From the NCBI GenBank assembly GCA_000004695.1, contig CM000154.2:3968001-4032000 (forward strand): DNA of 64,000 nucleotides, read 5' to 3'. Numbering within the stretch: position 1 is the stretch's first letter; the number at the start of each line of letters is the position of its first letter. A program made the position numbers and the translations under genes. This document shows positions 1,916-37,572 of this stretch, in pieces. Below the pieces are notes generated by a model that saw nothing but the letters and a program-made list of their open reading frames with translations, was not told the DNA's origin and made no database searches. This stretch comes from Dictyostelium discoideum. Lineage: Eukaryota.

Positions 1916-3699
1916 TTATTTCTTTTGTTTCTTTTTAGCTTTTTTATCTTCTTCAGATTCTTCCTCTGATTCATCTGAAGCAGAACCTTCATCAGACTCA
2001 GAACCAGACCTATAATTTTGGAGAGAAAAAAAATTAAATATGTTAGAAAGAGATTTTTTTTTTTTTTTTTTTTTTTATAAAAATATAAAGGCATACTCTG
2101 AAGGTTCATAATCATCATCATCAGAATCATCATCATCTATTATCATTGCAGGACCAGTAGTAACTGGATTTAAAATTGATAATTTCTTTTCTTTAAGGAA
2201 ATTGAAAAGACTTGGATATTCTTCACGTTGGATATTTACAAATTGAATGGAAGTTGAGTTCTTTAGATTGATAGATAAATCGAATGTACGATTACTACCA
2301 CCCCTAACGGATGGTGCACCATAACGAGCAAATTCAATGTTTGAGATATCTTCAAATTTAATATAGGTTGGTGGTTTATGAACAAAAAAGAAACATCTCT
2401 CCAATGGATATAAATAACCTTCATTGGCTTTCAATGAACATTTGATAGAGTTTGCACCTGAGTCCGATTGGAAATTACCAGGAATTGTGATTTTCTTGCC
2501 AGTCAATGCTTTAAGGATCTTACAAATGAGTGCATTGGCATTACCATTCATAATTGGTGAGAGTTGATCTTTGAATTTCTGTTGAAGTTCATCGGTTAGA
2601 TTTAATTCGAGATGAATGTTCTCCTCTGCTTGGAATTGAATGACTAAATGGGCGTATTTAGTTTGACCTTGACGAATGGGTGGGTCCAAGGAGATGATGA
2701 AAAAGATATGTTTTTGGTCTGGTCTAAAGAATTGAAAGAGACGTGAAATACTCTCATAGGGCACTTTATAGTCATGAGTTTTACCATGAAGTTTAAGGAA
2801 TGTTGGATACATTTCAATATCGATACGACCTCTTGGTGTAAGGAATTGAATGGCAGAGAATACAACCAAACTCTTACCAACATTCGATACCATATCTGAT
2901 TTATTCATAATGGTTTGTTGGAATTGCTCCAATGCACTAATCTCCTCCTCCTTTTCTGCATCCTCTTCATCCTCCTCATCCTCTTCGCCATCCTCGCCCA
3001 CCTTCTTTTCTTTACCACCTTCTTCACCCTCTTTCGATGGTCTAATTGGTGTGAAAAAACGCATCTCTACCATTGTTTCATCATCGTCATCCATTGCTTT
3101 ATCATGATGAAATTCCAATGTTAATTCATTTTTATTGTTTGCACCAATGACCGATTGTGATACTTCAGAGATTGGAAATTCAAATCCAACCTTACCATGA
3201 TCAGTGGTAAATTGAATCATTGGTCCATTGACTTTAACCTCACCCCAATTACAACCTTTACTTGATAATTCGATAATTTCCAATGGTGATACATTATATT
3301 GATCTGATAAATACTTTCTAACTACTTCATAATCTTGTTCTTTAAATCCATCAAATTTAACTGTTGCACCACCTTTAATCGATAATATTAATTGAAATAT
3401 TCTTGGTGTAACTCTAGCCCAATTTGCTCTCTTTATATCTGATGATGAAACTGTTTCAATTTTACCATTCTCCGATTTCCATGTTATATTATTTGTTGTA
3501 AATTTTAAAATACCTCTAGTCTAATAATAATAAAAATAAAAAAAATTAATATATTTATAATTTTTGAGAAAGTATTTAGAAAATTAATAATAAAAATTAA
3601 CTATATTATATATTTTTTTATGATGAAATTTACTCCACTAATTCTACCACCTAATGAAATATTATTAAATTGTGATACTGGATTTGAAGATGAGCTCAT
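1916..3699 (-). CDS. FACT complex subunit SSRP1/Pob3 homolog, 3 exons: complement(join(1916..2009,2097..3520,3634..3699)), ~527 aa, no HMG box
   Basis: Exon 1 encodes MSSSSNPVSQFNNISLGGRISG and ends at a GTAAAT donor. Exon 2 starts TRGILKFTTNNITWKSENGKIETV...GFKEQDYEVVRKYL...SKGCNWGEVKVNGPMIQFTTDHGK, which aligns with the human SSRP1 N-terminus (CVKGWNWGTVKFGGQ). The middle domain matches ...RGRIDIEMYPTFLKLHGKTHDYKVPYESISRLF...LDPPIRQGQTKY. After an acidic tail a GTATGC donor splices to a terminal exon RSGSESDEGSASDESEEESEEDKKAKKKQKK. Frame and phase are consistent across both introns. Confidence 0.8.
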
Positions 3700-4262
3700 T
3701 TTTTTTTTATTTTTTTTTTTTTATTTGTTTTTATATATATAAATCTACAGTAATATATATAAAATAAATATATTATTAAATATATGTTTTCTAAAAAAAG
3801 AAGAAAAACTAAAAAAAAAAAAAAACAAAAAACAAAAAACAAATATGACAAATTTTAATAAAAATAAATAAAAAAAAAAAAAATAAAAAAAAAAATAAAT
3901 AAAAAAAAAAAAATTTTAAAAAAAAAAAAAAAAATTCAAAAAAAAAATAGTTTAACGAGAAATCTTTTTTTGGCGCCACACCACACACTTTTTGATTGAA
4001 TGTTTAATAATAATGTATTAAACATTATTATCTTTATTAAAATATTTTAAATGTTTGGCTAAATAATAATTATCACCACATGATTGGAAAGTTATGATAC
4101 TAATTATAAAACAACCCAAATTCAATATTTTATTATTTTTTTTTTTTTTAAAATTTTAAAAAAAAAACAACTGGAAATTTTCTGGAAAAAGTTGGATTTT
4201 TGTGAAAATTTGGTAATGAAAAAGGAAAGGTTGGAATTGAAAGAAGAATACTTTTCCCGTTA

Positions 4263-4313
<51 letters not shown>

Positions 4314-4699
4314 AATAATCGTTGGCAAAAAAAAAAGAAAAAATAAAAAATAAAAAAAAATAAAAAATAAAAAATAAAGGGAAAAAAAAAAAAATTTAAG
4401 AAAAGTCTTTTGAATCTTTAAATTTTGAAGCTGTTATGTTGGAACTGATCTTGTTTTAAAACAAAAGATAATAATTTAGATATCATCAATTTTGTGCCCA
4501 TAAACAAATAGTTTTTATTTTTTTTTTTTTTTTTTTTTGTCAGTCCTGTTTTTTTTTTTTTTTTTTTTTTTTTCAAGTGATGATTATTTTATTTTTCATT
4601 TTTTTTTTTTATTTTTTTTTTGATTTTTTTTTTTTTTTTTCTTTAACCTCTTGTGTATTCACCTCACTGATGACGTTTGAACATTATTTTAATTCAAAG

Positions 4700-18965: not shown

Positions 18966-19020
18966 TATAAAGTAGACCCTTTTTCTAATCTTCATGTTTC
19001 CTTATCTTTTTAAAATTTAA

Positions 19021-19037
19021 GAGTCGAACCTGCGATC
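19021..19037 (-). promoter_or_regulatory. External B-box (ex-B) downstream of tRNA-Ala
   Basis: The minus-strand sequence is GATCGCAGGTTCGACTC, about 31 nt beyond the tRNA 3' end. It has the same extended sequence and spacing as the ex-B box behind tRNA-Asp at 37573..37589. Dictyostelium tRNA genes characteristically carry an extra pol III B-box 20-40 bp downstream. Confidence 0.65.
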
Positions 19038-19061: not shown

Positions 19062-19157
19062 TGGAGAAGAAGGGTATCGATCCCTTTACCTTATGGAAAT
19101 CTGATTATCGTTGCTGTTTATGCAAACCATACGCTCTACCATATGAGCTACATCCCC
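19062..19157 (-). tRNA. tRNA-Ala(UGC) with a 23-nt intron
   Basis: The minus-strand read is GGGGATG TA GCTC ATATGGTA GAGC G TATGG TTTGCAT [aaacagcaacgataatcagattt] CCATA AGGTA AAGGG ATCGATA CCCTT CTTCTCC A. The G3:U70 pair is the Ala identity element. The anticodon loop TTTGCAT gives UGC. The anticodon stem TATGG/CCATA re-forms only once the 23-nt insert is removed. The T-arm GGGATCGATACCC is canonical. Confidence 0.75.
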
Positions 19158-19457: not shown

Positions 19458-20839
19458 ATGACAAAGAGTGTATTTGTGACAGTTGGTACAACCAAGTTTG
19501 ATGATTTAATAGATAAAATTGATTCACCAAAATTATTTAATATATTATTAAAGTATGGGTTTAACAAAATGATTATTCAAATTGGTAATTATAGTGGAAC
19601 AATTGAAAATTCATTACCATTTGATGAAAATAATAATAATAATAATAAAACAAATAGTAAAACAACAACATCAACAACAACAACAGCAAAATTTGAATCT
19701 TTATATTTTGATTATAAACCATCACTTTCTGAATTTATGAAAAATTCAGATTTAATAATTTCTCACGCAGGTAATTAATTTTATTATATATACACAATAT
19801 TTAATAATAATAGTATAATTATACTAATAGTAACTATAATTATTATTATTATTATTTAAAATAATTTTAGGATCAGGATCAATTTTAGAATCTTTAGAAA
19901 ATAACAAACCATGTATATGTGTTGTTAATGATAAATTAATGGATAATCATCAAAAAGAATTAGCAGATAAATTATCAAATCTTTCATATATTTTATCAAC
20001 TAATCCAACTTCATTATATGAAACCATTGAAACTAAATTGGATGAATATTTAAAGAATAGAATTTATTTAGATAAATCTATTCATCAAAAAGCACAACAA
20101 CAATTTGCTACATCATTATCAAATCAATTTAAATTAATAAATAATAATGAAGATGATAATACTAAAACATCATCATCATCATCAACAACAACAACAACAA
20201 CAACAACAAATTCAAAAAAGAAATTTAAAACAATGGTAGTTTTAGGATCAGGTGGTCATACAACTGAAATGTTTTATTTATTAAAAAAAGTTGATAAAAA
20301 TAAATTTAATCCAATCACTTATGTATTAGCTGATAGTGATAAAAGATCTGAAGATAAAATTAAAATTGAAGATACATCATCACCAATCATAAAGAAAATA
20401 CCAAGAAGTAGAAATGTTGGTCAATCATTTTTTAATAGTATTTTTACAACTGTATGTTTTTAATTTTATTATTAATTATTATTATTATTATTATTATTAT
20501 TATCTATTATTAATTATTATAAATTTAAATATATAGTTAATTGCATTATTTTATTCAATGTTATTAGTATTTAAAGAAAAACCAGATTGTCTTTTATGTA
20601 ATGGACCAGGTACATGTGTACCATTAGCAGTTTGTGTTTTATTATTAAGATGGTTACGTATTGGAAAAGGTTCAAAGATTATTTATATTGAAAGTTTAGC
20701 AAGAGTAAATGATTTATCATTATCTGGGAAAATATTACAACATATTTCTGATTGGTTTGTTGTTCAATGGCCTGAATTACTTAGTAAAACTGATTCAAGT
20801 AATGTATCTTGTATAAATTTATTCTTTGAAACATTTTAA
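19458..20839 (+). CDS. UDP-GlcNAc transferase, ALG13 and ALG14 domains fused in one ORF, 3 exons: join(19458..19770,19871..20451,20537..20839), ~405 aa
   Basis: Exons 1-2 give the ALG13 domain: MTKSVFVTVGTTKFDDLI...SDLIISHAG|GSGSILESLENNKPCICVVNDKLMDNHQKELADKLS (human ALG13: MKTVFVTVGTTSFDDLI...[43 protein letters not shown]). The same exon continues without a stop through a Ser/Thr-rich linker into the ALG14 domain: KKFKTMVVLGSGGHTTEMFYLL...YVLADSDKRS...IPRSRNVGQSFFNSIFTT|LIALFYSMLLVFKEKPDCLLCNGPGTCVPLAV...IIYIESLARVNDLSLSGKIL...DWFVVQWPEL. No N-terminal TM helix precedes the ALG14 domain. Introns have GTAATT and GTATGT donors and ...TTTAG and ...TATAG acceptors with phase preserved. Confidence 0.75.
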
Positions 20840-21029: not shown

Positions 21030-21766
21030 TTATCTTGAAAATAGTTTAAATACTGTTGAAAAGGTACCAGTAATCATGGACTGACCAAATGGAATATATG
21101 ATAGTGAATACCAAATTACTGTTATAAATTGAATTACCACAAATATTAAAGTTAAAATTGTAGATTGAAGTGAAAGTGCGAAATAAATTGTAGCAAATAT
21201 TGAACCTATATATAAAATGGTTGAATATAATCTCTCTTTTGATGACATAATATTGGCTATTTGTTTTTTAACACCAACTAAAATAACTAATCCAATTATA
21301 ATTGATAAACTACCTAATGAATAAAATTTTGCAAATTGTCTTGGTATAAATAATACCATTGTTGACTAATAAATAATAAATAATAAATAATAAATAATAA
21401 ATAATAAATAATAAATAATAAATAATAAATAATTAGTAAAATTATTAAAATTATAAATTATTTTATTTTATTTTTACTTACCATTCCTAAAAATATAATG
21501 CCAATAACCAAACATATTACGAAACCAGTTAATCTTTGAAAATATGTTAATGAAGATGATTCTTGTAATTCTTGATAAAATGTTTTCGATTCTGCTGGTG
21601 ATGTTGTACCACCTAAAGCACCTGGTATATTTGATTTAATTTTTGACAAAAATCCATCTCCTGTATTACTAATATCATTCCAATATTGACCAGATGTTGA
21701 TTTAAAACTACTAAATACTGATGAATTGGTTTTAAATTCTACATCTAATTGACTTGTATCTATCAT
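21030..21766 (-). CDS. SFT2-domain vesicle transport protein, 2 exons: complement(join(21030..21366,21482..21766))
   Basis: Four TM helices. The sequence ...RLTGFVICLVIGIIFLGM|STMVLFIPRQFAKFYSLGSLS...[32 protein letters not shown] matches human SFT2D (FAVFYTLGNL...[21 protein letters not shown]). The intron contains an (AATAAATAAT)n repeat, with a GTAAGT donor and a TATTAG acceptor. Confidence 0.75.
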
Positions 21767-37430: not shown

Positions 37431-37477
37431 GATTATTCAATATTGTTATTTCTAATTATTAAAAACTTTCACATCAT

Positions 37478-37549
37478 TCCTTGTTGGTCTAGTGGTGAGG
37501 ATTTTCGCCTGTCACGCGAAAGGCCCGGGTTCAATTCCCGGACAGGGAG
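37478..37549 (+). tRNA. tRNA-Asp(GUC)
   Basis: TCCTTGTTGGTCTAGTGGTGAGGATTTTCGCCTGTCACGCGAAAGGCCCGGGTTCAATTCCCGGACAGGGAG is near-identical in architecture to eukaryotic tRNA-Asp-GTC. The anticodon loop is CTGTCAC. A T6 pol III terminator follows, and an ex-B box AATCGCAGGTTCGACTC sits at 37573..37589. Confidence 0.9.
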
Positions 37550-37572
37550 TTTTTTAAGATTCCAAAAAATAA

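Follow-up and report, generated by a model that had tools for sequence, protein, structure and literature searches.

The window analysed here is a stretch of 64,000 nucleotides of the Dictyostelium discoideum genome (contig CM000154.2, positions 3,968,001 to 4,032,000), and the gene considered occupies its positions 19458..20839 on the forward strand, from an ATG at 19458 to a TAA stop that ends at 20839, with three exons and two introns (Table 1). Across this interval a mechanical list of open reading frames (ORFs) gives three in-frame pieces on the same strand. All GT..AG combinations were enumerated, and the single splice combination that retains all conserved motifs was chosen. The locus is the D. 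discoideum AX4 gene DDB_G0290339 and our gene model equals the deposited one, the spliced product of 398 residues being identical, residue for residue, to XP_635810.1 / EAL62296.1 / UniRef100_Q54G73 in an exact-sequence look-up. The database name of XP_635810.1 is 'hypothetical protein DDB_G0290339 [Dictyostelium discoideum AX4]', and the UniRef label for Q54G73 is UDP-N-acetylglucosamine transferase subunit ALG14.

The product carries an Alg13 half that matches Pfam Glyco_tran_28_C (PF04101, E=3.3e-23, 83 bits against a gathering cutoff of 22), followed by an Alg14 half that matches PF08660 (E=2.1e-62, 210.5 bits against a gathering cutoff of 27). A preliminary description of the locus had claimed that ALG13 and ALG14 are fused in one reading frame within one exon. 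The fusion is confirmed, since the Alg13 end (…KLMDNHQKELADKLS…NRIYLDKSIHQ), the linker and the Alg14 start (KKKFKTMVVLGSGGHTTEM) lie in one frame of exon 2 without a stop (ORF 19939..20463). The single-exon statement is true of this junction only; the whole gene has two introns, one within each domain. No second copy of Alg13 or Alg14 was found when the window was searched with the protein by tblastn.

Domain order and predicted fold

The catalytic-type motifs GSGGH, HAGxGS..E and N..LM.NHQ.E show no variation across the fused family. In 43 fused homologues no change is seen at Alg13 residues H103, G105, E111, N124, L127, M128, H131, Q132 and E134, and G230-S-G-G-H234 of the Alg14 half is invariant in the alignment of the family. 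The sequence matches in the PDB were the nuclear magnetic resonance structures of yeast Alg13 (2ks6 and 2jzc, E~3e-23), and no Alg14 structure was detected by sequence search of the PDB copy.

Each half of the alignment of the fused family was run against the E. coli murG sequence in hhalign. The Alg14 half (residues 224-324) aligns to MurG 6-111 as a weak match (E=9e-4), with GSGGH opposite GGTGGH and PDxLLCNGPGT opposite PDVVLGMGGYVSGPGG, and the Alg13 half (residues 90-163) aligns to MurG 247-320, also weakly (E=0.015), with SDLIISHAGSGSILE opposite ADVVVCRSGALTVSE and the Alg13 donor loop on the 'RSGALTVSE' of MurG. Judged by these placements, the domain order is inverted relative to MurG, as had been proposed for the locus, and the MurG order (acceptor-side half first, donor-binding half second) is not found here. 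Weak as they are, the placements are in line with both the Pfam assignment and the result of Foldseek, whose top match is yeast Alg13 (2jzc) and whose further matches include MurG (7d1i, 1f0k, 3s2u) and GT1-type enzymes with the glycosyltransferase-B (GT-B) fold, over ~160-186 columns at a TM-score of ~0.3. Foldseek aligns one domain at a time because a circular permutant cannot be aligned end to end.

An AlphaFold2 model was built for the orthologue from a D. discoideum isolate (P0001, 95-97% identical) from a 42-sequence alignment of fusions with the same order. It has a mean predicted local distance difference test score (pLDDT) of 88.7 and a predicted TM-score (pTM) of 0.85, and pLDDT falls below 50 only at residues 195-210, in the Ser/Thr run. 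In this model Alg13 ends with two long helices (141-158 and 164-186), after which come the linker and then beta-strand 1 of Alg14 at 219-223. The high pTM implies that the mutual arrangement of the two ~180-residue domains is confidently predicted. The C-terminal helix of MurG-type GT-B enzymes folds back against the N-terminal domain; joining that helix to the acceptor-side N-terminus therefore needs a short connector, and circular permutation is the best description of the predicted fold.

The likeness to bacterial MurG (glycosyltransferase family 28) and archaeal Agl24 lies in the GT-B architecture of two Rossmann domains and in the absence of a transmembrane (TM) segment. The G-loop GGxGGH of MurG also corresponds to GSGGH of the fusion, and the MurG donor loop S-G-A-x-T-x-x-E to A-G-S-G-S-x-x-E. 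In contrast to MurG, the Dictyostelium order is circularly permuted, the presumed acceptor is dolichol-PP-N-acetylglucosamine (dolichol-PP-GlcNAc) rather than lipid I, and sequence similarity is very low. Both domains are homologous to those of the yeast/human Alg13/Alg14 heterodimer (EC 2.4.1.141), the same reaction is presumed, and the C-terminal helices of Alg13 and the conserved C-terminus of Alg14 are retained in the Dictyostelium fusion; the differences from the heterodimer are that the latter's two parts are one polypeptide in Dictyostelium and that Alg14 has no N-terminal TM helix.

In the mechanism that we propose, the Alg13 half comes first and would bind UDP-GlcNAc via the invariant HAGxGS..E and N..LM.NHQ.E motifs, and the Alg14 half would provide the GSGGH loop and the lipid-acceptor side. 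The flexible low-complexity linker would connect the C-terminal helices of Alg13 to the first beta-strand of the acceptor-side Alg14. Where the MurG layout is an acceptor half, a donor half and a C-terminal helix that packs on the first half, the fusion would be a naturally occurring circular permutation of this GT-B fold, in which the linker connects the old termini and the former inter-domain connection is open. The enzyme would sit on the cytosolic side of the endoplasmic reticulum (ER) as a peripheral protein, like MurG and Agl24, and its attachment would be through the hydrophobic, basic-flanked Alg14 helix (residues ~283-311) and/or through binding to the first-step enzyme Alg7.

We consider it very probable (about 85%) that DDB_G0290339 encodes a single 398-residue UDP-GlcNAc:GlcNAc-PP-dolichol beta-1,4-GlcNAc transferase that catalyses the second step in making the N-glycan precursor, with a permuted GT-B fold and a peripheral location at the ER. 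Its EC 2.4.1.141 activity, the transfer from UDP-GlcNAc onto dolichol-PP-GlcNAc, is assigned by orthology, and a single polypeptide would be the product in vivo. Several points weigh against this reading. The hhalign matches are weak and were made to a single MurG sequence, although the correct motifs nonetheless line up; the packing of the two domains is read from pTM alone; and two segments inside Alg14 (residues 291-310 and 317-335) reach a Kyte-Doolittle 19-residue mean (KD19) of ~1.9, over the classical TM threshold of 1.6, so that a naive predictor could call them TM segments.

Relatives and fusion orders

A search of 5.8 billion proteins gave 1270 matches. The best 120 were scored for the order of their domains, which was then verified by means of the NHQ.E and GSGGH motifs, and for how hydrophobic the stretch upstream of Alg14 is. 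Within these best 120, the Alg13-then-Alg14 order was found in 46 proteins including the query, and a hydrophobic helix before Alg14 in none of the 46 (no hydrophobic 19-mer upstream). The named sources of this order are Dictyostelium (five species or isolates), Polysphondylium, Acytostelium, Tieghemostelium, Cavenderia, Heterostelium, Pelomyxa schiedti and Entamoeba, all within the Evosea of the Amoebozoa. A metagenomic protein of the same order (P0062, 385 residues) contains a Val-rich hydrophobic insertion of ~60 residues ('VVALIVVVVQTVETVVCLH...'). It was considered as an Alg13-TM-Alg14 variant and rejected, the stretch being inserted inside its Alg14 domain, possibly as a retained intron or a gene-model artefact.

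The Alg14-then-Alg13 fusions (for example those of Neobodo, Euglena-like organisms and Alexandrium) and the stand-alone Alg14 proteins mostly have an N-terminal hydrophobic helix (KD19 ~1.7-3), and the few that score lower begin at or near the Alg14 domain. The fusions of kinetoplastids, euglenids, dinoflagellates and Arcella thus resemble that of Dictyostelium in having both halves in one polypeptide; however, they have the MurG-like order and mostly an N-terminal anchor (KD19 usually ~1.8-2.9), whereas the Dictyostelium order is inverted and the anchor is absent. Within the Amoebozoa, the comparison that the preliminary description had called for gives the same order and no TM segment before Alg14 in Dictyostelia, Entamoeba and Pelomyxa, and the opposite order in the tubulinean Arcella intermedia (P0046), which has a short hydrophobic N-terminus with a KD19 of 0.92. 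The two orders in Arcella and the Evosea (Dictyostelia and Archamoebae) suggest two independent fusions within the Amoebozoa.

The fusions of Entamoeba and other Evosea do not differ in kind from that of D. discoideum, having the same domain order, missing TM segment and conserved motifs. The spacing from NHQ to GSGGH in the same-order homologues is 71-107 residues (median 76.5), with Entamoeba at ~71 and the D. discoideum group, which has the longest linkers, at 95-107; these long linkers are due to the Ser/Thr/Asn repeats typical of the species. Several same-order proteins (P0014, P0015) are complete ORFs from transcriptome assemblies, indicating that in relatives a single mRNA covers both domains. 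The first ~283 residues encoded in Entamoeba nuttalli genomic DNA (Alg13, the junction and most of Alg14) lie in one uninterrupted ORF, and in D. purpureum (GL871146.1) the junction lies within one exon and introns are present at both positions matching introns 1 and 2 of the D. discoideum gene. The deposited D. purpureum model (P0005) is short by 15 residues, and the genomic frame (about 3001..4340 of GL871146.1) runs on continuously as '...NDDKESSSNKQPKPIIKKIPRSRNVGQSY...', restoring the conserved 'IKKIPRSR'; the gap is probably an over-predicted intron in the D. purpureum annotation.

The architecture itself is already known. The gene has an annotation, and reports of the inverted fusion without an anchor go back to 2005-2007: as PMC8993221 (eLife 2022) cites them, Bickel 2005 described it for E. 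histolytica and Averbeck 2007 for D. discoideum. The absence of the transmembrane domain (TMD) 'in the Alg13-14 fusion of E. histolytica and D. discoideum' is stated in PMC8993221, and Lombard 2016 (PMC4973528) reports fused forms in some amoebozoa. Evolutionary analyses of Alg13/Alg14, MurG and Agl24 have taken the fusion as an example. A full-text literature search for DDB_G0290339 gave no match, and the opposite, MurG-like fusion order in Arcella was not found in PMC8993221 and PMC4973528.

Alternative products and membrane association

In the linker, the end of the final Alg13 helix is followed by a low-complexity N/D/S/T run, for which in-frame (TCA)n(ACA)n repeats code, and then by a basic 'KKKFKT' stretch. 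The length of the linker differs among D. discoideum isolates and sister species and the frame is always preserved (five Dictyostelium sequences), which speaks for selection on the fused form and against a frameshift introduced by sequencing. The linker DNA (20091..20227) has 22.6% GC, as compared with 21-25% in the exons, 5-8% in the introns and 6-14% in the flanks, and this exon-like composition argues against a disguised intergenic region. With the ORF continuous as well, the hidden frameshift or intergenic break that had been considered for this interval finds no support.

It is improbable that the full-length fusion is cleaved in this disordered Ser/Thr linker, regenerating a yeast-like non-covalent Alg13/Alg14 heterodimer. 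The linker is indeed disordered and of low complexity in the P0001 model, and the short C-terminal Alg13 helix and the last Alg14 residues, on which the yeast complex depends (Gao 2008, as cited in PMC8993221), appear to be retained. However, a conserved cleavage motif is absent and nothing points to processing, the short spacing in Entamoeba leaves little beyond the helices, and cleavage would not bring back a TM anchor.

We regard as very unlikely the production of two proteins from the locus, namely Alg13 from the first ATG and a TM-less Alg14, the latter translated either from an internal start at M226 or from a separate, second transcript that begins in the linker. An in-frame ATG does stand exactly at the start of beta-strand 1 of Alg14, and M226 is conserved in dictyostelids, Pelomyxa and the homologue P0023. 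Yet the position is Met in 52 of 120 proteins, Leu in another 52, and Val, Ile or Cys in the remainder, the Entamoeba fusions having Cys four residues before GSGGH, and Met is also found in TM-anchored stand-alone Alg14 proteins such as those of a spider ('KTMVVLGSGGHT') and Neocallimastix ('STMIVLGSGGHT'). This mixture of Met and Leu, which extends to anchored Alg14, together with the Cys of Entamoeba, points to M226 as a hydrophobic residue of beta-strand 1 that carries no start-codon signature. A separate Alg14 product is also opposed by the lack of a stop between the domains, the exon-like linker (flanks and introns have 5-14% GC), the frame kept through the repeat-length changes, and the complete transcriptome-derived ORFs that cover both domains in relatives. 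The preliminary description had offered internal initiation at the Met of MVVLGSGGH or a different mode of membrane recruitment as implications of the fusion; the former is unsupported, while a recruitment different from that of the TM-anchored yeast/animal Alg14 is reasonable and already in the literature (PMC8993221).

The claim that no hydrophobic helix precedes the Alg14 domain stands, the highest KD19 in residues 150-235 being -0.41, and the Alg13 N-terminus opens directly with beta-strand 1 (MTKSVFVTVGTT). An N-terminal TM anchor is typical of most eukaryotic Alg14 proteins, though it does not belong to the Pfam domain; in the fusion it is missing because the N-terminus of Alg14 is taken up by the linker. 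The two segments with a KD19 of ~1.9 are the sole hydrophobic windows of the fusion protein and both lie inside the Alg14 domain, and on this ground one might suppose an integral membrane protein anchored by them; we see little chance of this. Both are modelled as core elements of the Rossmann fold, a helix and a strand plus helix (H285-306, E310-314 and H319-331, pLDDT 88-97), and they hold invariant polar residues typical of an active-site face (Q289, S290, S294, T297, T298 and N320-G-P-G-T-C). They recur, moreover, in all Alg14 proteins already provided with a separate TM segment, and they align to soluble-fold elements of MurG. Finally, an assembly or annotation artefact (a frameshift or lost stop in the repeat tract) is hardly credible even though homopolymeric and triplet repeats such as those of the linker are error-prone in sequencing, since the same continuous frame recurs in independent assemblies of another D. 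discoideum isolate, D. cf. discoideum, D. citrinum, D. firmibasis, D. purpureum, other dictyostelid genera, Pelomyxa and Entamoeba.

For the single fused enzyme, the most hydrophobic Alg14 helix (residues ~289-311) is otherwise apolar and carries a stripe of the invariant small polar residues Q289, S290, S294, T297 and T298, and a conserved basic 'IPRSR' stretch precedes it. The part of this helix at residues 299-310 aligns with MurG residues 73-84 in the weak hhalign match (E=9e-4), where the MurG helix presumably carries the proposed membrane-binding hydrophobic patch of that enzyme. The proposal of this patch is said to come from Ha and colleagues in 2000. According to PMC8993221, the TMD-less MurG and Agl24 are still membrane-associated, and for these two enzymes and the Amoebozoa fusions, all without a TMD, the association is thought to take place via hydrophobic patches and the partner proteins MraY and Alg7. 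Because a TM segment is absent in MurG, Agl24 and the Dictyostelium fusion alike, peripheral association is likely to be their common mode, and by analogy the TM-less fusion enzyme is probably recruited to the membrane peripherally, as in MurG.

A wider proposal, which we regard as evenly poised between being right and wrong, is that the Evosea enzyme is a circularly permuted GT-B transferase that has lost its TM anchor and reverted to MurG/Agl24-like peripheral binding via the hydrophobic Alg14 helix and/or Alg7, the two halves having been joined at least twice independently in the Amoebozoa. If this is true, the membrane-binding mechanism and the double origin of the fusion within the Amoebozoa would be new, the architecture itself being published. 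The fusion also serves as a natural experiment, indicating that either order is possible when the two GT-B halves are joined and that Alg14 can do without its TM helix. A single-chain, TM-less eukaryotic enzyme would also be convenient for structural work, given that the PDB copy searched holds no sequence-detectable Alg14 structure.

Gene features and neighbouring genes

Table 1. Coordinates of the ALG13-14 gene, its parts and its neighbours, as positions in the window
Feature	Position	Strand	Remarks
Exon 1	19458..19770	+	Residues 1-104 and first base of codon 105; start codon, Alg13 up to the 'ISHAG' motif; GTAAT donor at 19771
Intron 1	19771..19870	+	GTAAT...TTTTAG; 8% GC; splits the HAG/SGS donor-binding loop of Alg13
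Exon 2	19871..20451	+	Remaining Alg13, linker, first third of Alg14; whole fusion junction inside
Intron 2	20452..20536	+	GTATG...ATATAG; 4.7% GC
Exon 3	20537..20839	+	Remaining Alg14 with hydrophobic helix 'LIALFYSMLLVF', conserved C-terminal 'NLFFETF', TAA stop
Alg13 domain (Glyco_tran_28_C)	19470..20091	+	Residues 5-178, intron 1 inside
Linker	20092..20232	+	Residues 179-225
Alg14 domain (PF08660)	20233..20800	+	Residues 226-386, intron 2 inside; begins at M226 of MVVLGSGGH
GSGGH loop of Alg14	20245..20259	+	G230-S-G-G-H234
Got1/Sft2-family membrane protein gene	21030..21766	-	Convergent downstream neighbour
Got1/Sft2-family gene, exon	21030..21359	-	PF04178, E=1.7e-27
Got1/Sft2-family gene, probable upstream exon	21458..21766	-	
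tRNA-Ala(UGC)	19062..19157	-	23-nucleotide intron, G3:U70 pair
Second B-box-like motif	about 19018..19033		'GGTTCGACTC'
tRNA-Asp(GUC) gene	37477..37550	+	

The Got1/Sft2-family neighbour is syntenic, as it also follows the orthologous fusion gene in D. purpureum. On the other side is the divergently transcribed tRNA-Ala(UGC), 300 bp upstream of the start codon of ALG13-14; this tRNA was missed by ARAGORN at default settings and confirmed by ARAGORN -i, with an Rfam score of 49.1 bits (E=1.3e-8). The second B-box-like motif is found ~30 nucleotides downstream of this tRNA, and we take it to resemble the Dictyostelium 'ex-B box'.

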